Virus genome (UHGV): UHGV-0271890 | Direction: 5' to 3' (one strand) | DNA: 12,698 nucleotides | Origin: a virus | Part shown: piece after piece, positions 1,751-12,698 of the stretch | Layout of the letters: each line of letters begins with the position of its first letter | Numbering within the stretch: position 1 is the first letter of the stretch | Made by a program: the position numbers and the translations under genes | The notes under the pieces: generated by a model | Told to the model about the DNA's origin: nothing | What the model saw: only the letters and a program-made list of their open reading frames with translations | The model's database searches: none

Positions 1751-3166
1751 TTACCAGATGTAACGGTCAATCATTACTGCTTTGAGCATTACGCTGATTG
1801 GGTCAAACTTCTCACCACCAAGCAGAGCTTTTAAAGTGGCTGGAGAGAAACCAGATACCATTGCTACACCGTTATCCTTAACAGATACTTCGCAAGTACC
1901 ACTACGGTTTGCTAAGTACCAGAATACCAGTTGTGGCATTTCGTATCCAGCTTTTTTGTACTTACTACGAATTGCTTCAAAGTTTGTACGACCGTTAGCT
2001 CCATCAACCTGATTGAACTCCATATCGGAGAAGATGATAAGCTTACTTGGCATATCTTTCTGAGTCAAGTTGTTTCTTTTACCTGTCTCAAGAATACGGT
2101 CAAAAGCAGCTTGTAAGTTAGTTGAGCCATATTCAACGTGTCGCATCACCTGACGATGACGGTTTCGTAAATCACCACTCAGTTCGATGAAGTGAGGGTT
2201 TGTTGAATAAACCATCAACTCATTCTTAAAGCAACCTGTATTACGTTCTGCTACATACAATGCAAGTGAAACACCAATATCAAGAGCAGTAATTGAACCA
2301 AAATTCACCCAAGACATTGAGCTTGAAACATCAGACATACACAAGATGTTTTCACCCTCTGCCATCCAGTTTGGTAGTGCTTTCCACTGCTCATTAGCAA
2401 CATCTGCATTACCATGCTTAACAGATTTAATTACATCGTATGGGTAAACAGCACCAGCATTAATCTTAGTCTCACCCTTTGATAAGGACTCGATGTAAGC
2501 TTTGTAGCGTTCTCCATCTTTACGGTTAAACAGTTTTTGGTAACGTGCAGCAGCAAGTGAAGGAATCTTACTGTAGTCAATCTTACCAAACTCATTAGCA
2601 GAGATTTTTTGCTCAACTGTATCAGATAGTGCAGACAACAGTGTGCGGTACTCTTTCTCACTCAAGTTGGCAAACTTGCAGAAACGTTTTACAAACTGCT
2701 TATGACGTGGTTTGACTCGTGGTAACCACTTAGCTGCCAAACCTGCTGTTGCAGGGTCTAGTAATGCTGCTTCTAAATGTTTGAAGGCATCTGTCTCGAA
2801 ACGAGTACCTACGAAGATTTTGAAGTCATCAAAACGACCAAGTTCTGCAATCTTATCCATAATGCGAAGAACCTGTGTAGGCTCTAAAACTTTATCTTCA
2901 ATTGCTTGAAGCAAAACAGTTCTGAAGGCTTTACGCTCACCCATACCTTCTCGTACATCTCGCATGTGAAGCAAAATACGAACTGCAACATCAACATCCT
3001 CACGCAAAGCTTTGTAGAACAGGTCTGGTAAGATTTCTACATTGCTACGGCTCGAACCAGCAGATTTGTAAAAGTCTACAAGAGCAGACATTGATGAAGT
3101 ATGGTTTACAGCACCATTTTCAGTTCGACCTGCATGAAGGTGCGCATGTTTAAATAATTCGCTCAT
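1751..3166 (-). CDS. vWA (MIDAS) domain protein, 471 aa; possibly Ro60/TROVE-like or DUF2828-like
   Basis: Long ORF with RBS; MIDAS motif D-x-S-x-S (ILCMSDVSSSMS, ~nt 2300-2340) followed by predicted alpha/beta segments; N-terminal ~270 aa likely helical. Family assignment is from memory. Confidence 0.8.
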   Translation of the reverse strand: MSELFKHAHLHAGRTENGAVNHTSSMSALVDFYKSAGSSRSNVEILPDLFYKALREDVDVAVRILLHMRDVREGMGERKAFRTVLLQAIEDKVLEPTQVLRIMDKIAELGRFDDFKIFVGTRFETDAFKHLEAALLDPATAGLAAKWLPRVKPRHKQFVKRFCKFANLSEKEYRTLLSALSDTVEQKISANEFGKIDYSKIPSLAAARYQKLFNRKDGERYKAYIESLSKGETKINAGAVYPYDVIKSVKHGNADVANEQWKALPNWMAEGENILCMSDVSSSMSWVNFGSITALDIGVSLALYVAERNTGCFKNELMVYSTNPHFIELSGDLRNRHRQVMRHVEYGSTNLQAAFDRILETGKRNNLTQKDMPSKLIIFSDMEFNQVDGANGRTNFEAIRSKYKKAGYEMPQLVFWYLANRSGTCEVSVKDNGVAMVSGFSPATLKALLGGEKFDPISVMLKAVMIDRYIW

Positions 3167-3869: not shown

Positions 3870-4031
3870 ATGAGAAAATCAAATAAACCGAAGAAAGGTA
3901 AGAATACCAATCACTGTAAGGAATCAAAAAGGGTAGAATTAATCTACTATTCGTCCTCTGAAATTGGTCTGTACCTGTTCTTTCAAAATTACAGAAGACA
4001 AGAGGATTATCTATGTGTAGTTCCCAATTAG
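3870..4031 (+). CDS. Small lysine-rich hypothetical protein, 53 aa
   Basis: ATG at 3870 preceded by AAGGAG; the ORF-track start at 3849 is a TTG without RBS. Confidence 0.4.
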   Translation: MRKSNKPKKGKNTNHCKESKRVELIYYSSSEIGLYLFFQNYRRQEDYLCVVPN

Positions 4032-4246
4032 AAATCGCAGATATTATAGATTTATATCAAACTGCAAAGAGTCATGGCTATATAACCTCAATTGGAAAGA
4101 ATAGTCACTATGATGCTTTGACTGGAATGTATTTCAGGGCAATGGCTCAATCTAGTGAACAACACTTAATGGTTTCTTCCAGTGAGTTTACTTCGTTTCT
4201 CTATTGCAGCAAAATTATAAATCGCAGGAGAACTGAAAAATGTTAA
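4013..4246 (+). CDS. Hypothetical protein, 77 aa
   Basis: ATG preceded by AGAGGA; overlaps neighbours by a few codons. Confidence 0.45.
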   Translation: MCSSQLEIADIIDLYQTAKSHGYITSIGKNSHYDALTGMYFRAMAQSSEQHLMVSSSEFTSFLYCSKIINRRRTEKC

Positions 4247-4830
4247 CAGTAAGTTTTAATTACAATAGTGATGGCTCTGTATCAATTAATTCGCCATATG
4301 CAAATGACCTACTTAAAGAGCTAGTCAATCAGTGTGATAGAGGTCTTCACTATGTTCAAAATTCTTTTAAACAGAAGACTATTGCTAATAACTTGATGCG
4401 TGTAACAGTAACGGCATCGAATCCAAATTATGACTTTGATAGTGAAAGTCCGTACTCATTAGTTGCGCTTGGAGAGAGCAGCCAATTCAAACTTGTTTGC
4501 CACGACTCAGAAACATTCCTTAAGGTATTTTCCAACCTTATTCATAATAATAAGTACAGCTACGTCGATGGTAGTGTAAATTTCTATCCAGCAAACTATA
4601 CATGTTTGTTGGTTGATAATATGAGAAAAAGTAAGCAAGAGCCTACAGAAATTTCATTTGATGTAAACTCTAGCCCAGACGCAGAAACAAGTAAGAACTT
4701 TGATATGAGCTACGCATTGTCACTCAGTAAGAAATCCGAGTTCATTGATTATGTCAATGGATTTGGTTTTAAGTTTGATGAGAGTATGAATCTTAAAAAA
4801 CTTAAGAACCTACTTAAGACCAAAGCTTAA
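4240..4830 (+). CDS. Hypothetical protein, 196 aa
   Basis: ORF with AGGAG RBS; followed by hairpin terminator. Confidence 0.75.
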   Translation: MLTVSFNYNSDGSVSINSPYANDLLKELVNQCDRGLHYVQNSFKQKTIANNLMRVTVTASNPNYDFDSESPYSLVALGESSQFKLVCHDSETFLKVFSNLIHNNKYSYVDGSVNFYPANYTCLLVDNMRKSKQEPTEISFDVNSSPDAETSKNFDMSYALSLSKKSEFIDYVNGFGFKFDESMNLKKLKNLLKTKA

Positions 4831-4838
4831 GTGTGAAT

Positions 4839-4865
4839 AGGGGCTGATGCCCCTTTAACTATTTA
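4839..4865 (+). terminator. Rho-independent terminator-like hairpin
   Basis: AGGGGC-TGAT-GCCCCT stem-loop followed by a T-rich tract. Confidence 0.5.
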
Positions 4866-4877
4866 TAAGGATATTTA

Positions 4878-5249
4878 ATGAAAGCTAAGAGTGCAAAAGA
4901 CTTTTATTGCTTCCTACAATCCTATATCAATTCCGTGCAAAATGGTGAAAGGTACAACCTTAATGATGTTATCCCAACACCTTTGACATGGAGACTCAGC
5001 AAATGGCCTGAAGAAGATATTACACCAACAAGCGAACAGTGTACCTACAAACCTGAAATCAATATTCCAGATTCTGAGAACCTATTATACCCAATGTTCC
5101 ATATTGTTGGACTTGGAAGATTCCTTATGGATATCCAGTATGTAATTGGTAAAGGTTATAAGGTTAAAGGTATTGTTGTTGGTGATGTATCTCCGCATCA
5201 CAAAGGTTATTTTAGACTAAACGCACATTTAGAGGCTAAAAAGAAATGA
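4878..5249 (+). CDS. Hypothetical protein, 123 aa, paralog of the N-terminal domain of the next gene
   Basis: ORF with AAGGA RBS; shares a conserved block with the 5246..6379 product (FMDIQYVI vs FMDLQYAI, plus shared residues around W-P-E-x-D-I and Y-K-P). Confidence 0.75.
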   Translation: MKAKSAKDFYCFLQSYINSVQNGERYNLNDVIPTPLTWRLSKWPEEDITPTSEQCTYKPEINIPDSENLLYPMFHIVGLGRFLMDIQYVIGKGYKVKGIVVGDVSPHHKGYFRLNAHLEAKKK

Positions 5250-6379
5250 TTAAAGCAAAGACTTACCCAGACTTCAAAGAGTTTGTGAAGGGCTTCGTTG
5301 CAAATGTAAAGGCTGGTAAGAGATATGATTTTAGAACATATCAGGAGGCTATTTTACCGCTTACCTATAGTTCGTATTGGCCTGAAGCTGATATTGCAGA
5401 AGTTGAGAAGTTTGACTACAAACCAGACTACAAAGTTCCATTTAGTGATGAGTTGCTTTACAGCGTTGGTGCTCAAATGAGAACTTCTGACTTCTTCATG
5501 GATTTGCAGTATGCAATCATCAATGGTAAAGATGTTGACACAATTTACTGTGAATGGTTGGCAAGAGTTAAGCCGTTCTCAATGTTGAATGCTAAGTTGA
5601 AGGATGCTATTAAGCCACCAGCAATTACTCAGCAACCAACAGGTCAAACAGTCAATGAGGGTGGCACACTTACTCTAAGCATTCTAGCAACTAACGCCAC
5701 TGGATATCAGTGGAAGAAGGATGGTGAGGACATCCCTAGTGCCAATTCTGCAACTTACACAAAACAGTCAGTAGCACCTTCTGACGCTGGTTCATACACT
5801 TGTGTTGTATCTGGAGAGGGTGGAACAAGTGTTACCTCAGATACAGCAACAGTGACTGTGAACGCACTGCCTGTGATTACACAACAACCTTCTAGCCAGA
5901 CCATCAATGAGGGTGGAAACATCAACTTGGAAGTGACTGCAACTGGTGCAACTGGTTACCAATGGAAGAAAGATGGCTCTGACATTCCTTCAGCGACAAA
6001 TGCTGCCTATAGCAAGTCTGGTGCGCTGCCAGCAGATGCAGGTTCATACACTTGCGTTGTAACAGGTGCAGGTGGTTCTGTTACTTCTAGTCCTGCAACA
6101 GTTACTGTGAATGCACTTCCAGTAATCACTCAACAGCCAACCAATCAAGAAATCACTGAAGGTGAGACATTAACACTTAACGTTGTAGCAACAGGTGCAA
6201 CAGGTTATCAGTGGAAGAAGGGTGAGGAAGTCATCCCAGACGCAACTGCTGCAACTTACATCAAAGAAGGTGCAACCGCTGCTGATGCAGGAAGCTACAC
6301 CTGTGTAGTGACTGGTGCAGGTGGCTCTGTAACATCTAATGCAGCAACAGTTACAGTTAACCCAGCAGGGGAGGCGTAA
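5246..6379 (+). CDS. Protein with N-terminal paralogous domain and three tandem Ig-like domains, 377 aa
   Basis: ATGA start/stop overlap; three ~82-85-aa repeats, each with ITQQP...EG...ATGYQWKK...DAGSYTCVV...VTVN (I-set-like Ig signature). Confidence 0.85.
   Translation: MIKAKTYPDFKEFVKGFVANVKAGKRYDFRTYQEAILPLTYSSYWPEADIAEVEKFDYKPDYKVPFSDELLYSVGAQMRTSDFFMDLQYAIINGKDVDTIYCEWLARVKPFSMLNAKLKDAIKPPAITQQPTGQTVNEGGTLTLSILATNATGYQWKKDGEDIPSANSATYTKQSVAPSDAGSYTCVVSGEGGTSVTSDTATVTVNALPVITQQPSSQTINEGGNINLEVTATGATGYQWKKDGSDIPSATNAAYSKSGALPADAGSYTCVVTGAGGSVTSSPATVTVNALPVITQQPTNQEITEGETLTLNVVATGATGYQWKKGEEVIPDATAATYIKEGATAADAGSYTCVVTGAGGSVTSNAATVTVNPAGEA
5615..6370 (+). repeat. Three tandem ~250-bp in-frame repeats encoding Ig-like domains
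   Basis: Protein-level repeats are strongly conserved while the DNA has diverged at synonymous positions. Confidence 0.8.
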
Positions 6380-6843
6380 TGCAACTCTCAAGAAAAGGTT
6401 TAGACGCTATTAAGTTCTTCGAAGGTCTGAAGTTAGAGGCTTACGAAGACTCTGCCGGAATCCCAACAATCGGGTATGGGACAATCCGTATTGACGGAAA
6501 ACCTGTTAAGATGGGTATGAAAATTACTGCTGAACAAGCTGAACAGTATCTTCTCGCAGATGTTGAAAAGTTCGTTGCAGCAGTGAACAAAGCCATCAAG
6601 GTTCCAACTTCTCAGAATGAGTTCGATGCACTTGTAAGTGAAACATACAACATCGGTATCACAGCTATGCAGGATTCTACATTTATCAAGCGCCACAATG
6701 CTGGTAATAAGGTAGGTTGTGCAGAAGCTATGCAGTGGTGGAACAAGGTTACAGTCAAAGGTAAGAAGGTCACTTCAAACGGACTGAAAAACAGACGTAG
6801 AATGGAAGCTGACATTTATCTTGACAGTGTATATCCAAAGTAA
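6379..6843 (+). CDS. Lysozyme, glycoside hydrolase family 24 (T4/P22-type), probable endolysin
   Basis: N-terminal FEGLKLEAYEDSAGIPTIGYG has the E-x8-D-x5-T catalytic spacing of T4 lysozyme; overall resembles P22 gp19; TAATG start overlap. Confidence 0.92.
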   Translation: MQLSRKGLDAIKFFEGLKLEAYEDSAGIPTIGYGTIRIDGKPVKMGMKITAEQAEQYLLADVEKFVAAVNKAIKVPTSQNEFDALVSETYNIGITAMQDSTFIKRHNAGNKVGCAEAMQWWNKVTVKGKKVTSNGLKNRRRMEADIYLDSVYPK

Positions 6844-6853
6844 TATCTTCATA

Positions 6854-6880
6854 GGCTCCTTCGGGAGCCTTTTTATTTTC
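6854..6880 (+). terminator. Rho-independent terminator
   Basis: AGGCTCC-TTCG-GGAGCCT followed by TTTTTATTTT, immediately after the lysozyme stop. Confidence 0.75.
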
Positions 6881-6893
6881 TAAGGAGAAAACT

Positions 6894-7292
6894 ATGAAAC
6901 TTTGGGCTAGTGACTTTGGAACTTTTAAGTACACTCGCAATGGCTCAATGGTGAGAATCATTGGGAGTAACGTTGTTACAGTTGGGGATAGGGTACATAC
7001 AAGGTTTACTGTTGAGTTAGCTGAACTATCGCCTATTGAATCTGCTAACAATGGACTGTTCAAGTTTGAGACTTACCATGTAAATGAACACGGGCAGTTT
7101 AATACTCTAGGGGAAAGTGGTCTTGATATTATTTCAGAACACCCCTTGACAAGAGAGCAACTTGCAGGTTACTATAAAACCATTCTTGAAAGGACTTTGG
7201 CAACACATGAGCATGAGGCCAGATACCACATAGAACGATGTGAAGTTTTAAGAGCAAAAATCGAACAAGCAGAGAGAGGTTTTTATGAATAA
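6894..7292 (+). CDS. Hypothetical protein, 132 aa
   Basis: ORF with strong AAGGAG RBS. Confidence 0.75.
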   Translation: MKLWASDFGTFKYTRNGSMVRIIGSNVVTVGDRVHTRFTVELAELSPIESANNGLFKFETYHVNEHGQFNTLGESGLDIISEHPLTREQLAGYYKTILERTLATHEHEARYHIERCEVLRAKIEQAERGFYE

Positions 7293-7680
7293 TAGCAGTC
7301 ATATCCACGTTAAAGTTGATGTCAGTCGTTACAGTGAAAATGAAGAATTAGACCTGCAAGATGCTCTTCTATTTGAGAAGAATGGCAATCTGCATTTGCA
7401 TTTTGAAGGTACAAACACATATCTCCACAGATGTCGAGATGATGCCGATGGTTGCCCTGTTTTTGCTTGGTATAATTTAGAGTTTCCTCTTTATGCAATC
7501 CACTATCCAGATGGTGGAGAAGACTGGACAACTCAATCAATCTTTGATGAGCTTAATGGTGTTCCAGTTGAGCAAGAAGAGCAAGAGCCTGTTGAACTCA
7601 CCTTCACTTTTATCAAAGAAGAGAAAGTTGGTGATTTGTCAGTAACTGAAGCAATTCAAGTCTCACAGGTTATTCGTTAA
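7285..7680 (+). CDS. Hypothetical acidic protein, 131 aa
   Basis: ORF with GAGAGAGG RBS; overlaps neighbours by a few nt. Confidence 0.75.
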   Translation: MNNSSHIHVKVDVSRYSENEELDLQDALLFEKNGNLHLHFEGTNTYLHRCRDDADGCPVFAWYNLEFPLYAIHYPDGGEDWTTQSIFDELNGVPVEQEEQEPVELTFTFIKEEKVGDLSVTEAIQVSQVIR

Positions 7681-7973
7681 TGAGTAAAGTACAGGTTGTT
7701 TTCCCTATTTGTGACTTCTCACTAGAGCGTGAACTTGACCTGTACGAAGAAATTACTGACGAAATTATCTGGTCTGTTGTAGAAGAGGCTATCAAGAAAC
7801 TGTATGGTGGCCTCTTAAACCCATCAAGTAAGAAGTTAAGCACTAAGCAAGTAGCTGACCCATATGTTTCATATGATGCCTACAACAAACCTTTTGAGAA
7901 TACCTGCTTTGACCTTATGGTAGGTAATAACAAAGTCAACTATTTCTTCGTCAGAGAGTTTAACGATGAGTAA
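7680..7973 (+). CDS. Hypothetical protein, 97 aa
   Basis: TAATG overlap with the upstream gene. Confidence 0.65.
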   Translation: MSKVQVVFPICDFSLERELDLYEEITDEIIWSVVEEAIKKLYGGLLNPSSKKLSTKQVADPYVSYDAYNKPFENTCFDLMVGNNKVNYFFVREFNDE

Positions 7974-8310
7974 GCTCCATGTCACAGTGTACAAAAACTT
8001 CTCAGATATCAAAGAGTCTTTAACAAATAAGCTTGACTTACAACGTAAAAGACTCTTTTTAATGTACGACATAGACAACTACAACCATCCTAAAGAGTTT
8101 AACTACAAAGATGGTACAAAGGTTGTTGAGTTTGAAGATTCTGTAACGGTATATGTAAAATATGACTTACCAGCAAAGTACATAGGGGTGTTAGAGTATT
8201 ATATATTCAAACATACTGGTATGCGTGGTGAATCTGTCAAGATATCTTCTATAGAAGTTTTTGAGAAACCTAACACACAACTTAAAAAGTATTTAATGAG
8301 GAAACTGTAA
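7966..8310 (+). CDS. Hypothetical protein, 114 aa
   Basis: ORF with GAGAG RBS; small overlap with the upstream gene. Confidence 0.7.
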   Translation: MSKLHVTVYKNFSDIKESLTNKLDLQRKRLFLMYDIDNYNHPKEFNYKDGTKVVEFEDSVTVYVKYDLPAKYIGVLEYYIFKHTGMRGESVKISSIEVFEKPNTQLKKYLMRKL

Positions 8311-8891
8311 TGTCCGAAGAGCAACAGAATATCACTCCACAAGTGACACTAGTACAACACTTTGGAAATATTGAAGGGTGTATTGCACTTTTTCAACCAA
8401 GCATCAACTCTCCTGCAAAAGTCTGTAAGTTGACCATGAATGTTAACAACATCAGTGTTTGCCTTGTTGATGAAGTTCAATATTTCAAGTTCAATGACAG
8501 AGAGGTTGATGCTGCACTATTGAAGTATCGAGCAAGCCTCGAAAAAGATATTGACCATAAAGAACTTGTAACGCTGTTTGGTGACCTTCACAAGCTTCTT
8601 GAAAAGGTTATGAAGCGCACATACTACATGAACAATGGTTCAATCATCACCACTTTGATTTCGCCATGTATCTCAGAGCCAATTTTAACTGATGACGGTG
8701 GATACTACGTGGTAGCATCAGCAGACTCTGATTGGTGGATGAAGAATACAGCACTGAAGACGATTATCGAGGCTATCCGTGAACACATTCCTTCATTCAG
8801 CCCGTGGAAAGGTAAAAGTGATGATTTCATTGCACTATTGAGTGAAGAGAGTAACAAGCGCAGTGCATTACTGCCTAAAAAATACTCTTGA
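8310..8891 (+). CDS. Hypothetical protein, 193 aa
   Basis: ORF with GAGGA RBS; TAATG overlap. Confidence 0.75.
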   Translation: MSEEQQNITPQVTLVQHFGNIEGCIALFQPSINSPAKVCKLTMNVNNISVCLVDEVQYFKFNDREVDAALLKYRASLEKDIDHKELVTLFGDLHKLLEKVMKRTYYMNNGSIITTLISPCISEPILTDDGGYYVVASADSDWWMKNTALKTIIEAIREHIPSFSPWKGKSDDFIALLSEESNKRSALLPKKYS

Positions 8892-8916
8892 CCGAGTATA
8901 CAAAACTGATTATGAT
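8888..8916 (+). promoter_or_regulatory. Candidate internal sigma70-type promoter
   Basis: TTGACC (8888-8893), 17-nt spacer, TATGAT (8911-8916). Confidence 0.4.
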
Positions 8917-8946
8917 GGGAGCTATCGAGAGGTAGTTCCCTTTTTA
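8917..8946 (+). terminator. Hairpin plus U-tract (terminator or 5'-UTR structure)
   Basis: GGGAGCTA-TCGAGAGG-TAGTTCCC 8-bp stem (one G:U) followed by TTTTTAG. Confidence 0.4.
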
Positions 8947-8974
8947 GTTTCTAGATAAGAGACATGGTAAAAGA

Positions 8975-9193
8975 ATGAAAAAGTTAACTACAGTTGAAGA
9001 TTACTACAAACTTTCCCTGTTAGAACAGTATCGTAGAAGCCAGAATATCAGAAAATGCTATGGTAAACACGCTGAAGGTGACTTTTACCGTTGCTATGAT
9101 GCAGATTTAAAAGGTGTAACACCTAGAGGGAAAGTCCTGCAAAGACTTGTTGACCTTGAATGGAACAAACGATTGAGAGGGGTTGGAAAATGA
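8975..9193 (+). CDS. Hypothetical protein, 72 aa
   Basis: ORF with weak RBS; stop overlaps the next start (ATGA). Confidence 0.6.
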   Translation: MKKLTTVEDYYKLSLLEQYRRSQNIRKCYGKHAEGDFYRCYDADLKGVTPRGKVLQRLVDLEWNKRLRGVGK

Positions 9194-9693
9194 TTTACGA
9201 AGAAAGATACAAGATAGATTTTCAGGATACTCGCCACCACACTTCTTTAAGAGTGACGAAACCAAATGGAGATACCGGTATCATAGCACATTTTGGTGGT
9301 GATTATTGGTATGGCACAGGTTGCTTTGAAGGCTACAATCAAGAATACTTGAAAGCATTCTACAGAGACTTTGCAAACGACTACAACAGGGTTGTTGACG
9401 AAAAGAATAAATGTATTAAGCATGAACACCATGCCAGAGGCTGCCTAAGTATTGTTATGGTACTTGCGTTCTTCTTAGCAATGTTACTAGTAGTATCAGC
9501 AATTAGCTGCATAGCTCAAGACTTGACAATTACACAGATTACTACAAAGATACACGATATCTGGTACTTGTATGCTGTTCCTTTAGCTGGTATCATCATC
9601 TCACTAATGAGGTTCAGAGTTCATAAGAAACGACTTAAGGACTCAGAGATTAAACTTGAAGAGGTAAGTAAAGAATGCAACCTACAATTATAG
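9190..9693 (+). CDS. Membrane protein, 167 aa, two predicted C-terminal TM helices
   Basis: ATG at 9190 preceded by GAGGGG and overlapping the upstream stop (preferred over the ORF-track start at 9160, which lies inside the previous gene); hydrophobic stretches VMVLAFFLAMLLVVSAISCIA and YLYAVPLAGIIISLM followed by a charged tail. Confidence 0.65.
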   Translation: MIYEERYKIDFQDTRHHTSLRVTKPNGDTGIIAHFGGDYWYGTGCFEGYNQEYLKAFYRDFANDYNRVVDEKNKCIKHEHHARGCLSIVMVLAFFLAMLLVVSAISCIAQDLTITQITTKIHDIWYLYAVPLAGIIISLMRFRVHKKRLKDSEIKLEEVSKECNLQL

Positions 9694-9770
9694 CTGTATG
9701 TGTTCGTTTTGCAATCGCTGAAATGATTAACAAGGCAATCTTAAAAGATGCCTATGGAGAGACTAAGTAA
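9675..9770 (+). CDS. Candidate small hydrophobic peptide, 31 aa
   Basis: ATG preceded by GAGGT with ~9-nt spacer; MQPTIIAVCVRFAIAEMINKAILKDAYGETK; stop overlaps next start (TAATG). Not in the ORF track because it is below 60 aa. Confidence 0.3.
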   Translation: MQPTIIAVCVRFAIAEMINKAILKDAYGETK

Positions 9771-9994
9771 TGATTAAAACACCTGTACCAATTTTTGGAT
9801 TCCCTTCTATAGAAGAATTTAAAGTCTATCTTGACAAAAACTTCTACAACGAGCAGCCTGTAACACTTCTGAAGAGTGACTTATCAGAGCTTCTTGATAT
9901 GGTTATCAAGGCAACTTCTGAGAAGGAACCTGAGCAGAAAGCTGAGAAGAAGAATAGTAAGAAATCTGATAAGAAGACTGAAAAGTCTGAGTAG
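9770..9994 (+). CDS. Hypothetical protein with lysine-rich C-terminus, 74 aa
   Basis: ORF with GGAGA RBS. Confidence 0.6.
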   Translation: MIKTPVPIFGFPSIEEFKVYLDKNFYNEQPVTLLKSDLSELLDMVIKATSEKEPEQKAEKKNSKKSDKKTEKSE

Positions 9995-10047
9995 TAACTT
10001 GAGGGGTTACTTGATAGCCCCTTTGTAGAAACTTAGAAGGTAGCGAA

Positions 10048-10476
10048 ATGAAAGAACTTATAGGTAAAGAGCTTGACGTTGTAGATGCAAAGACACAGAG
10101 GTATATAGCTACTGTTAAGTTTCTTGGAATGAATGATGCAAGTGATGATTACCCTCTCAACTGCATAGTTTTAGATAAGTTTAAGGTTTGTGGTATTAAT
10201 TTTAATGAGGATAACTTTATAAGCTTTGATAAGGACGGTTTCTGGCGTGGTAAGAACCATCCTCAAGCAAATGAGTTTGATATGCGTCTAGTGATACCAC
10301 AAAAAGGTAAATCACAAAATGTAAAAGATATCCTTGTAGAAGCCTATGCAGAAGGTATAATAGATGTTGTGCATGATGTTGAAAAAGCTTTAAAGCTTGT
10401 TATGCCACATTTAGAATCTGGAAAGCTGACTTTAGAGATGTTTAATAGGGTTATTCGGAGAGCTTATGAAGGTTAA
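10048..10476 (+). CDS. Hypothetical protein, 142 aa
   Basis: ORF with AAGG RBS. Confidence 0.75.
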   Translation: MKELIGKELDVVDAKTQRYIATVKFLGMNDASDDYPLNCIVLDKFKVCGINFNEDNFISFDKDGFWRGKNHPQANEFDMRLVIPQKGKSQNVKDILVEAYAEGIIDVVHDVEKALKLVMPHLESGKLTLEMFNRVIRRAYEG

Positions 10477-10930
10477 AGAAGTCGTTCAAAAAGCAATGCT
10501 TGATAACTCAACTAAAGACGAAATGTACAAAGAGATTTGTGATAAGTTGAATTGTTCAAGACATGCTGCTAATGTTCTTGTACATTGTTTTATCTGGGAA
10601 TGCTCAGAGGCTTATATGCAATATGTAGCGTTTGAAAGTTCTCACTTACTAGGTGATGTAGAAGCTGGTGAGAAGCTAAAAGAACCTGAGATGAAAACAG
10701 TTCCTAAAGTTGGTAATGTATACCCTCTTAAAGATTTCAAGACTGGAAAGATTGTTGCAAAAGGTGTAGTAGAATCTGTTTATCACGATGGTAAATACTT
10801 ACTTAAAATATTTGAGTATGATAGCCACTACACACACTTATGTGGGATTACATTCTTAGTAACAGAAGAAGACCTCATTAAGAACAATGGCAACAAGTTT
10901 GCAGTCCCAGCTTACCAAGTTTTACGATAA
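10466..10930 (+). CDS. Hypothetical protein, 154 aa
   Basis: ORF with GGAGAG RBS; overlaps the upstream gene. Confidence 0.75.
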   Translation: MKVKEVVQKAMLDNSTKDEMYKEICDKLNCSRHAANVLVHCFIWECSEAYMQYVAFESSHLLGDVEAGEKLKEPEMKTVPKVGNVYPLKDFKTGKIVAKGVVESVYHDGKYLLKIFEYDSHYTHLCGITFLVTEEDLIKNNGNKFAVPAYQVLR

Positions 10931-10943
10931 TGGTGTGATAGAT

Positions 10944-11492
10944 ATGGAAAAAGATAACTTAAAAGAAGTTGAAGGTAACTACTTAGTACTTGACTGGAAG
11001 GATGTTCGGGAAGCACTCTCTGAAGAAAATCTTGACTGGTTCGAACAAATTATCTTTGCAGTACGGCATAACCGAGAAGTTGAAAATGGTAAAGAGCCAC
11101 TTGAAGGAATCTTTGTAGAAAGGTCTTATCCATTCTATGAAGACACTTTGCAGAAAGTTAAGATGTACTTTAAACAGAAGAACCGTAAAGTGGTCACTAT
11201 GGTATCTCTTGGTGGACAGAGTATGTCTGTGATGGAAGATATCAACCCTAAGAGACCGAGTAAAGGTGTTTGTATAAAAATCACAGGACATGAAGAGTAT
11301 ATCTCAGTGGCTGACTTTAGTGTGTTCTGTAATGGTTCTGCTGTCTTTAATGGGTTTCACTATGATATCCGAGTGTACCCAATCAAGGGAGATGATATCA
11401 TGATGCAGATATTCGATAACAATAATGGGTTCACTCATTTTTACCAGACAACTAAGTCATCATTGAAAACAGTTCTGGAAACACTGATTTAA
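10944..11492 (+). CDS. Hypothetical protein, 183 aa (alternative start 10887 gives 201 aa)
   Basis: In-frame ATG at 10944 avoids a 44-nt overlap with the upstream gene; RBS is weak for both candidate starts. Confidence 0.65.
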   Translation: MEKDNLKEVEGNYLVLDWKDVREALSEENLDWFEQIIFAVRHNREVENGKEPLEGIFVERSYPFYEDTLQKVKMYFKQKNRKVVTMVSLGGQSMSVMEDINPKRPSKGVCIKITGHEEYISVADFSVFCNGSAVFNGFHYDIRVYPIKGDDIMMQIFDNNNGFTHFYQTTKSSLKTVLETLI

Positions 11493-11503
11493 AATATCTT
11501 AAG

Positions 11504-11535
11504 AGCCTCCTTAATTGGGGGCTTTTTAATTTTTA
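11504..11535 (+). terminator. Rho-independent terminator at the end of the plus-strand operon
   Basis: AGCCTCC-TTAATT-GGGGGCT stem (one U:G) followed by TTTTTAATTTTT. Confidence 0.7.
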
Positions 11536-11599
11536 TAAAATTTTATCGGTTGTCCCAACCTCTGGGTCACCATCATATGTGAATAAAATATCTATCCTT

Positions 11600-12698
11600 C
11601 TTAACAACCTTCTTAATCTTACTCTCTATATATAGTTATATAGTACTATATAGTATCTTAGTAACTATCTAGTGGTCTTAATAGCCCCTCTGTATAACCC
11701 TTCTAACTAGCCCTCTAACAAGCCTTCTAAACACTCTTCTAACAAGCCTTCTTAACAACCTATACAATCACCTTAACCATCCCTCTACACCCTCTTAGAA
11801 GCTCCTATACACCTCTTAATCTCTATGTCAGCTATGTTACCCTCTATAGGTGTTCACTAGGTATTACTAAGCCTCTATATAGACTGTTTTAACAAACTTA
11901 ACAGGAATATCTTTACAGACCTTATCTCACAAGGTCTAACACGGTACTAACAAGGTATCTTATAAGCCTGTTTCTACCTGTATTTTTAAAAGACTGTCTA
12001 GGTAATTATTCAGAATTTTAAAATTTTTATAAAATAGGGTTATCAAGTCATTTTTTAGGGTCTTTGAAGGAACTGAAAAATATCTGATTAGGATGTATAT
12101 CTGCTTGGTAGCCCTTAACATCCCTGTAACATCCCCTTTGCAAAATTTTAAAATATCCTTAACAATCTCTTAACAGTTCTCACATCTTCTTAACAACTCT
12201 TCAAAGGTCTTAACAGTTTCTTAACAGAACTAACAAGGGCTTAACAGTTTTCTAACAAGTGCTGAATAGTCTTTACAGAGGCTTAACAGATGACTAACAA
12301 GAGCTAACAAGTTAATTTTAAAGAGTTATTTTGTTAAGATAATTAACAAGTTCCTAACAAGTGTTTAATCTTTTTAACAAGCTATTAACATGGTCACTAT
12401 CTCTTTTCTTATCGTTCCCTTTCCCTCTTAGTGATTCTCTTAACATACCTCTTAAAAGCTCTCTATAGCTCCTTGTAAGCTCTTTTAAGCCTCTTCCTAG
12501 TAATTACACCCCCAACTATGAAGAAAGCTCTTTATAGGGCTTTTCAGGAGCTTTTAAGGCTATGTCAAATGTTCTTACAAGGCTTTTACGTGGTCTTAAC
12601 AGAGATTTAACAAGGGGCTAACAAGTTGTTAACAAGTGCCTTAAAAGCATAACTATGTAGGGTTTGTTAAGAAATTGTTAAGAAAATGTTAAGGGGGC
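11600..12698. repeat. Non-coding array of ~30 direct TAACA(A/G) motifs in ~11-bp phase, with inverted copies at the right edge
   Basis: Hand count of about 30 plus-strand TAACA occurrences; most are in the YTAACARG context. Starts at 12597/12608/12619/12630 are exactly 11 bp apart; spacings between 12116 and 12386 are 9-11 bp or multiples. Inverted TGTTAAG copies at 12665, 12676, 12688; palindromes TTGTTAAGATAATTAACAA and TTGTTAACAA. No ORF of 60 aa or more on either strand. Confidence 0.8.

Follow-up and report, generated by a model that had tools for sequence, protein, structure and literature searches.

What is the function of a gene-free, G-poor segment close to one end of a viral DNA? 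The question is raised by positions 11580-11900 of a 12,698-nucleotide stretch from the virus genome UHGV-0271890 (hereafter the window), where an earlier note, made from the letters alone, had picked out repeated boxes with a CTATAG core and likened this core to promoters of single-subunit phage RNA polymerases. The location, anatomy, orientation, motif enrichment and conservation of the segment lead us to propose a different role, in which it would bind protein and take part in DNA packaging: 11580-11900 may be a cis-acting element of the concatemer junction, for end recognition and processing in a phage with short exact direct terminal repeats (DTRs). We hold this explanation tentatively, at somewhat less than even confidence.

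The genome end and its terminal repeat

The final 1.3 kb of the window has matches in 255 phage records, the majority at 90-95% identity, and almost all of the records are titled as Escherichia, Salmonella, Shigella or Citrobacter phages. The taxonomy of the records that were opened is Ounavirinae throughout (Felixounavirus, Suspvirus and Mooglevirus). Judged by its sequence, the window is one end of a Felixounavirus (Felix O1-like myophage) genome. Stretch 11580-11900 is itself present, at a coverage of at least 80%, in 247 of the 255 related records.

Two relatives fix the position of the end. Phages I14.1 and Ro111lw have identical ends (100% identity) of 581 bp and 613 bp, respectively, which align to 12107-12698 of the window, the alignment reaching the window's last base exactly. 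PhageTerm analysis described the Ro111lw ends as a 613-bp T7-like short DTR (PMC6454146) and reported DTRs for the six genomes announced with I14.1 (PMC11737134); short terminal repeats of Felix O1 itself had been inferred by Whichard et al. from pulsed-field size compared with sequence length (PMC3185647). Because the end repeats of I14.1 and Ro111lw align to 12107-12698 and stop at the window's end, we assign 12107-12698 (592 bp, plus strand) as one copy of the DTR and 12698 as the physical genome terminus. GenBank records of these phages are often opened arbitrarily, that of Felix O1 at rIIA and that of UAB_Phi87 in the tRNA cluster, and a record start such as the latter is therefore uninformative on the genome ends.

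Both boundaries of the repeat are marked by invariant sequence in an alignment of ten junctions from Felixounavirus, Suspvirus and Mooglevirus. The inner boundary, placed by the exact end repeats of I14.1 and Ro111lw, falls in a 27-nt block at 12094-12120 (TGTATATCTGCTT/GGTAGCCCTTAACA, the slash marking the boundary), invariant in all ten phages of the three genera; the left half of this block is also kept in Erwinia phage phiEa21-4, and the end-cutting site is presumed to lie between 12106 and 12107. The outer boundary is an invariant 10-nt block, AAGGGGGC/TA. Segment 11580-11900 is unique, non-coding DNA lying ~225-530 nt inside the inner boundary, and in replicating concatemers it sits on the upstream side of the genome-to-genome junction. 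A 53-aa open reading frame (ORF) starting with ATG, on the minus strand at 11960-12121, crosses the inner boundary; it is probably spurious, and only concatemers or one of the two genome ends would contain it whole.

The whole of 11493-12698 is non-coding. In relatives the corresponding gap measures 1.60-1.70 kb (~1.65 kb is taken for the present junction) and separates convergent operons, with gene 24 running rightward and gene 23 leftward, and the transcription units of Felix O1 have been described alike (Whichard et al. 2010, PMC3185647). The plus-strand operon (Felix O1 genes 40 to 24) is closed by an intrinsic terminator at 11501-11526 on the plus strand, with a 10-bp stem containing five G-C pairs and a T tract, which forms the left edge of the junction; a stem-loop is seen at this position in 10/10 aligned phages. 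Intrinsic terminators flank the junction on both sides.

Repeat modules and conservation of the junction

The base composition of 11580-11900 is 30.2% A, 26.5% C, 8.1% G and 35.2% T (61.7% pyrimidine). Across 321-nt windows the median G content is 19.9%, and the minimum of 7.8%, at 11522-11842, overlaps the segment. The G-poor, pyrimidine-rich character reported in the earlier note is thus borne out; the wording "almost devoid of G" is right about the strong depletion but slightly overstated, as 26 G residues are left. No G-free run in the 12.7-kb window is longer than those at 11582-11634 (53 nt) and 11747-11797 (51 nt). The repeated boxes described in the same note are present (CTCTATATATAG at 11624, CTCTATAG at 11842 and CTCTATATAG at 11873), as are seven copies of CCTCT. 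Of the palindromes, the perfect ACTATATAGT (11645-11654) exists in a single copy rather than several, and the 8-bp palindrome core CTATATAG in two (11646 and 11875). The segment is also, as had been stated, free of genes: its longest ORF encodes 29 aa and is made of repeat units, and we rejected a coding function.

The boxes are concentrated at the junction. A further CTCTATAG copy lies outside the segment at 12461, while CTCTATA occurs once in the other 11.5 kb of the window and never on the minus strand. In Ro111lw, CTCTATA-type boxes are ~78-fold enriched in the 1.68-kb junction (11 copies, seven plus and four minus) relative to the remaining 84.7 kb (eight copies, three plus and five minus). 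Enrichment reaches 151-fold for CTAACAAG and 45-fold for CTTAACAG, and the junction copies of these three motifs are almost all on one strand.

This distribution bears directly on the proposal that a phage-encoded RNA polymerase of the single-subunit (T7) type uses the boxes as promoters, a proposal that we now practically set aside. What speaks for it is the shared CTATAG core only, together with a position upstream of the DTR that recalls T7 phiOR. The proposal fails on the missing polymerase and on the lack of recurrence upstream of genes. A tblastn search with T7 RNA polymerase against the complete Ro111lw genome and the window gave a best E-value of 1.6. All nine Ro111lw ORFs of at least 500 aa are otherwise assigned (terL, tape measure, tail fibre, DNA polymerase, primase/helicase, two ribonucleotide reductases, NAMPT and rIIA), and Pfam searches with the large unannotated proteins returned tape measure, portal and similar proteins, excluding a hidden polymerase. 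Felix O1 has also been stated to lack an RNA polymerase of its own (Whichard et al. 2010, PMC3185647). Outside the junction, Ro111lw has only the three plus-strand and five minus-strand copies of CTCTATA mentioned above; seven were placed by hand against the annotation, of which five lie within coding sequence; the other two are in the tRNA cluster and in a short gap between genes. None of the 23-mers of 11580-11900 matches the T7, T3, SP6 or K11 promoter consensus, even with seven mismatches. Our literature search found no transcription-start or RNA-seq study of any Felixounavirus.

A second promoter reading invokes the RNA polymerase of the host, perhaps retargeted by a phage factor, with CTCTATATAG as a -10-like element and a non-coding transcript running into the DTR. 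It gains from the analogy with transcription from T7 phiOR across the junction, where pausing of T7 polymerase aids the start of packaging (PMC3276506), and the boxes of both flanks of the repeat would point into the DTR. The sequence TTCACT-N17-TATATA at 11852-11880 agrees by eye with 8/12 consensus positions, has both halves in invariant blocks and is, with low probability, a weak host-type promoter. However, a sigma-70 scan of 11300-12698 gave six sites against 4.2 ± 2.2 expected, none of them at the boxes, and genes elsewhere do not have the motif upstream, so it is no general phage promoter. A functional RNA product finds no support either: Rfam at a permissive threshold gave no match (the sole sub-threshold hit, to a Phe leader, lies on the terminator), and folding of single-stranded DNA (both strands of 11580-11900 and the repeat boundary) and of RNA from both flanks revealed no structured element, with z-scores of -1.2 to +1.4. 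The architecture is, moreover, kept in phiEa21-4 without any CTATAG box. Overall we regard a host promoter as very improbable.

The segment is built of discrete modules, of which the most distinctive is an imperfect 29-bp inverted pair with the pattern CTATATAG-N3-CTTAGT-N6-7-TAGTG. The left arm, at 11646-11674 on the plus strand, reads CTATATAG-TAT-CTTAGT-AACTATC-TAGTG; the right arm, at 11854-11882 on the minus strand, reads as the reverse complement CTATATAG-AGG-CTTAGT-AATACC-TAGTG and overlaps an invariant 17-mer, CCTCTATATAGACTGTT (11872-11888). The pattern occurs only twice in the 87-kb genome of Ro111lw, the copies inverted to each other. Scanning 2.9 million viral contigs retrieved 29 stretches, whose contigs all measure 51-94 kb and mostly 81-94 kb; 21/29 contain exactly two inverted copies. 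The pair is kept in the 27 distinct versions of the element that we compared, with inter-arm spacers of 145, 156, 168, 180 or 188 nt, that is, in steps of ~12 nt. The spacer is G-poor in every version (6.8-10.6% G, 28-33% C), including Mooglevirus-type versions such as Sf14, in which the iteron units are replaced by CTCTATA-type units.

The 12-nt steps have a counterpart in a tandem array inside the spacer (11699-11758, plus strand), with the consensus CCTTCTAACAAG in ~5-6 units, degenerate flanking ones included, and detected at period 12 (4.7 copies) and period 24 (2.5 copies). It carries the CTAACAAG iteron core and is the most G-poor part of 11580-11900; its copy number differs between phages, with alignment indels of 12 and 24 nt. 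To its left, the 53-nt G-free run on the plus strand (11582-11634) contains two CTTCTTAA(CA) units and a YTAACAR site at 11601 and leads into the first CTCTATATATAG box. This box opens a TATATAG module at 11624-11660, in which it is followed by ~10-nt units TATATAGT / ACTATATAGT (period 10, 3.3 copies), among them the perfect 10-bp palindrome; CTATATAG at 11646-11653 is invariant across genera. To the right of the array, a conserved C-rich segment (11761-11853, plus strand) has CYCTAYR boxes at 11783, 11821 and 11842 and CCTATAC at 11804, ~18-21 nt apart, or roughly two helical turns, with an invariant block TCTTAATCTCTA at 11814-11825.

Between these modules and the DTR lies a highly conserved unique spacer (11889-12106, plus strand), with YTAACAR sites at 11889, 11898 and 11947 and invariant blocks at 11929-11943, 11956-11971, 12019-12037 and 12076-12085. 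The third of these is an AT-rich box, TAAAATTTTTATAAAATAG (AT-rich part 12011-12043), and a comparable palindromic box with a TTTTATAAAA core lies on the other side, at 11528-11547; TAAAATTTTTATAAAATAG and, in the latter box, TTATAAAATTT (11533-11543) are invariant in the three genera.

The DTR itself contains 18 plus-strand YTAACAR iterons spaced 10-11 nt apart and phased at ~10-10.5 bp (R = 0.70), with periods of 10-11, 22 and 31 nt; this phasing would match protein arrayed along a single face of the helix. At the very end of the repeat, a 44-nt C-free run holds three inverted TGTTAAG units (12664-12693). The iteron family extends into 11580-11900, at 11601, 11715, 11739 and 11752. One alternative that the earlier note had held open, a structural DNA element or a part of the same regulatory region as the iterons, therefore stands up: repeat and flank form one conserved non-coding junction.

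Phased iterons are also what would be expected of a replication origin, in which an initiator would bind the YTAACAR iterons and boxes and the AT-rich palindromic boxes would unwind. Outward transcripts, being G-rich, would form stable R-loops at the G-poor/G-rich mirror flanks and prime DNA synthesis inward from each end. The iteron-like direct repeats with their phasing, the invariant AT-rich boxes at 11533-11543 and 12019-12037, a strand skew that is mirror-symmetric around a centre near the DTR, and two relaxed DnaA boxes (TTATTCACA) in opposite orientation, at 11578-11586 (minus strand) and ~100 nt right of the DTR in Ro111lw, all fit this scheme. Secondary origins of T7 lie at the end-proximal promoters phiOL and phiOR, both annotated in the T7 record. 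On the other hand, no initiator gene is adjacent, the neighbours being small hypothetical genes, and the DnaA-like boxes are not conserved in Suspvirus and Mooglevirus. Scans for DnaA, IHF, Chi and GATC sites found nothing beyond these two relaxed, non-conserved boxes, and hence no IHF consensus. The sigma-70-like promoters from which outward transcription would start are not in excess (six against 4.2 ± 2.2). Early, replication-linked divergent transcription has been placed far away, between genes 96 and 97 (Whichard et al., PMC3185647). An origin would also leave unexplained why invariant blocks coincide exactly with the DTR boundaries. We consider it an unlikely, though not negligible, alternative.

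Beyond the DTR, outside the window, relatives have a mirror image of the segment: a G-rich flank whose TATAGAG boxes are those of 11580-11900 inverted. On the plus strand, CTCTATA thus stands left of the DTR and TATAGAG right of it (Ro111lw 843, 853, 925 and 937). The G-rich flank also carries invariant TTATAGAGCGTTT, TATAGAGTA and CTATAGAGTTATT boxes. The nearest inverted box begins 229 nt past the end of the DTR, and the nearest box of 11580-11900 ends 225 nt before its start. No 100-nt window of the Ro111lw genome (87 kb) has a stronger C>G skew than one (C 37, G 4) within the stretch orthologous to 11580-11900, and the other flank holds the second most extreme window for the opposite strand (C 4, G 28).

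Such a skew could reflect transcription rather than packaging. Read-through RNA from the segment, being C-rich, G-poor and unstructured, would serve as a Rho utilisation (rut) site that backs up the intrinsic terminator and keeps convergent transcription out of the DTR, with the mirror flank doing the same for the early operon. The two genome-wide extremes of C>G skew are as this predicts; the C-rich strand is, on both flanks, the one carried by incoming transcripts, just downstream of the intrinsic terminators; and RNA from 11660-11860 folds weakly, less well than 188/200 shuffled sequences (z = +1.43). The Rho hexamer has six primary binding sites, and their spacing is close to the 12-nt period of the array. 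Spacer G-poverty is kept where the repeat units have been replaced, as in Mooglevirus, and phiEa21-4 has a matching skew with different motifs. Against this, rut sites are degenerate and leave the invariant 8-17-nt blocks, the 29-bp inverted pair and the palindromes unexplained, and an efficient-looking intrinsic terminator already stands ahead of the region. At the other convergent junction of this genome type a strong C>G window has ordinary coding composition, and there is no independent sign of such sites. We judge this insulator reading rather improbable as the explanation of the segment. An insulator can coexist with a packaging element, and packaging, origin and insulator roles are not mutually exclusive.

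Conservation across genera differs from module to module. Identity is 76-91% in 11580-11660, 76-84% in 11761-11900 and 77-80% in the 11889-12106 spacer, and only 39-56% in the 12-nt array, which differs by whole units. The neighbouring gene 24 shows 50-55% protein and 60-70% DNA identity between the same genera. The non-coding modules, at 76-91% identity, are therefore at least as constrained as this gene.

A fourth genus, represented by Erwinia phage phiEa21-4 (NC_011811), retains the architecture of the junction in the syntenic gap at 16472-17912 with partly different motifs. From left to right there are a C-rich flank with CTTAAC units, a boundary TTGTATATCTGCTT, twelve plus-strand TCTTAAC units (9/12 being TCTTAACA), inverted TGTTAA units, and a G-rich flank. 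This flank contains about twelve YTTAGAAG-like units, in the core of which CTTCTAA appears as its reverse complement. This arrangement suggests a terminal repeat of ~440 bp. The gap contains no CTATAG boxes; what is conserved across the subfamily is the arrangement and not the promoter-like core.

A candidate end-recognition element and its surroundings

The explanation we tentatively favour joins these observations as follows. During replication genomes would be joined head to tail, a ~600-bp repeat separating the right end of each from the left end of its neighbour. This repeat and both its flanks are full of short, strand-oriented, helically phased repeats, the YTAACAR iterons and the CTCTATAG-type boxes (inverted on the right flank), which would be binding sites for one or more phage proteins, the terminase or an accessory factor for end recognition being the most plausible candidates. 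Once bound, such protein would build a nucleoprotein complex over the junction, setting the cuts at the invariant repeat boundaries and aiding duplication of the DTR through 3'-end extension; DTRs are produced by such extension at staggered nicks in fixed positions (PMC5557969). A site-specific binder would occupy the 29-bp inverted pair (11646-11674 and 11854-11882) in two copies, bracketing a length-adjustable G-poor spacer with further iteron and box units, and the palindromes could supply hairpin-forming sequence, as reported for T7 just left of the right-end repeat. Segment 11580-11900 would then be the upstream accessory module of the end-recognition site. The DTR boundary blocks that are invariant in ten phages, the iteron and box families common to the DTR and 11580-11900, and the insulated setting (terminators on both sides, no ORF, no Rfam match and no significant fold) are all consistent with this explanation.

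Several points weigh against it. The DTR is demonstrated in relatives, and the present phage is seen by one end only. Pfam searches with the large unannotated proteins and the ORFs before terL recognised no small terminase subunit, and a 66-aa ORF before terL has no Pfam match. The link of 11580-11900 to packaging and its candidate binding protein are deduced from anatomy. The segment starts 225 nt from the cut site, and 11901-12106, nearer the boundary, is more uniformly conserved across genera than 11580-11900 as a whole; the real recognition site may lie there. T7 tolerated insertions at most loci near its genome ends (bioRxiv 10.1101/2024.10.10.617714), and thus flank arrays can, by analogy, be dispensable; fitness values for the present junction in Bas63 were looked for in the same paper and not found. 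PhageTerm suggested headful packaging for SunLIRen, a phiEa21-4-like phage (PMC6256631), so fixed ends may not be subfamily-wide. Finally, a replication origin would account equally well for phased iterons with AT-rich boxes, and Rho loading for the mirror-image C>G skew.

A bolder version, to which we assign little probability, is that the Ounavirinae share an undescribed system of terminal cis-elements: mirror flanks that are C-rich inward, inverted CTCTATAG boxes (CTTCTAA in phiEa21-4) and the 29-bp pair. Clearing of convergent transcription, by a protein or Rho, or R-loop-primed initiation would be coupled to terminase recognition and DTR duplication. If true, this would be a polymerase-independent answer to the task that T7 solves by pausing of RNA polymerase at the junction.

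The DTR was already known from PhageTerm outputs, and some records carry automatic 'repeat_region' features on parts of the junction. Within its limits, our literature search turned up nothing that describes or interprets the flanking modules, the inverted pair or the mirror arrangement. To our knowledge, no settled role has been given to the flanking repeat arrays of short-repeat phages since T7 was sequenced. The Felix-type junction is more conserved than the adjacent genes and has separately testable parts (boundary blocks, iterons, inverted pair and adjustable spacer), and thus offers a second, polymerase-free system in which to dissect end recognition and DTR duplication. There is also a practical side. 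Felix O1-like phages are diagnostic and therapeutic workhorses, now rebooted and engineered from PCR fragments (PMC10933291) and subjected to genome-wide insertion screens (bioRxiv 10.1101/2024.10.10.617714); the map given here tells engineers which DNA not to disturb and what content a minimal packaging cassette may require.

Elsewhere in the window, the plus strand carries at 4013-11492 the counterparts of Felix O1 genes 40 to 24, among them the lysin gene at 6379-6843, and the genes adjoining the junction are small hypothetical genes. Gene content just upstream varies: phage allfine lacks two small genes that are present in fjerdesal and in the window, and a 'tail protein' gene upstream of gene 24 measures 885 or 1134 nt among allfine, fjerdesal and the window, the non-coding junction being intact throughout. 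On the minus strand at 1751-3166, beside the tRNA cluster, a 471-aa ORF encodes a large conserved protein without known function, whose Ro111lw orthologue matches DUF7788 and DUF2828; Bas63 gp130, encoded directly upstream of the Bas63 tRNA genes, was likened to Ro60 by the authors of PhageMaP (bioRxiv 10.1101/2024.10.10.617714). GATC is wholly absent from the window (~42 expected) and from the 86,950-bp Ro111lw genome (~297 expected). Other 4-bp palindromes are near their expected frequency, and the absence of GATC therefore points to strong selection against Dam/MboI-type sites.

Comparison with known systems

Promoters of the T7 class have the CTATAG hexamer in common with the junction and differ in having a polymerase gene, a 23-bp consensus and recurrence upstream of genes, none of which is found here. 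With rut sites the junction shares a C-rich, G-poor and unstructured stretch, here of at least 100 nt, on the read-through RNA strand. Rut sites need neither the high conservation nor the palindromes and inverted pair of 11580-11900, which in addition lies behind an intrinsic terminator. Iteron origins (lambda ori and plasmid oriV) resemble the junction in their phased direct repeats beside AT-rich segments and in relaxed matches to the DnaA box, but have cores of 17-22 bp compared with 7-8 bp here; the present element has no adjacent initiator gene and no conserved DnaA boxes, and is delimited by the genome ends.

Multi-site packaging signals are known to flank terminase cuts, as in P1 pac, with hexamer repeats on both sides, SPP1 pacL/pacR and lambda cosB, and the herpesvirus 'a' sequence has DR2 12-bp reiterations between pac1 and pac2. 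Compared by anatomy only, these systems share with the Felix-type junction short-repeat arrays on both sides of the cleavage positions and a helical phasing suggestive of DNA wrapping by an oligomeric binder, and herpesvirus DR2 also shares the variable copy number of a ~12-bp unit. They differ in using headful packaging or cohesive ends rather than exact direct repeats, and their motifs are unrelated.

The junctions of T7 and T3 have several features in common with the present one, among them an exact short DTR with fixed ends and an oriented 7-8-nt unit found both inside the repeat and in an array in the adjoining unique DNA. Reading the T7 ends directly, we found CCTAAAG units inside the 160-bp repeat and in a G-poor array beside it. 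This array is similarly short of G (10.8% at T7 161-400 compared with 8.1% in 11580-11900), its units are spaced 13 nt apart compared with 12 nt here, and both phages have palindromic sequence a few hundred nucleotides inside the right-end repeat. T7 has a pacB site and, reportedly, a hairpin-forming palindrome left of its right-end repeat. In T7 only the downstream flank is strongly skewed, whereas here both flanks are, in mirror image and with inverted boxes; the present DTR is about four times longer; and no T7 counterpart of the 29-bp inverted pair was seen. In T7 and T3, packaging begins at the junction and owes its specificity to DNA that lies no further than 5% of the genome from the ends (PMC3276506). 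The host phage of the present element is an 87-kb myovirus without its own RNA polymerase, to which the polymerase-pausing step of T7 therefore cannot apply. There is no sequence similarity: CCTAAAG does not occur here, and blastn-short gave no match below E = 0.38, which makes the element, on this comparison, an analogue and not a homologue of the T7/T3 arrays (SRL/SRR). It is this sharing of the T7 end design by unrelated sequence that leads us to favour, tentatively, a cis-acting nucleoprotein site at the Felix-type junction.

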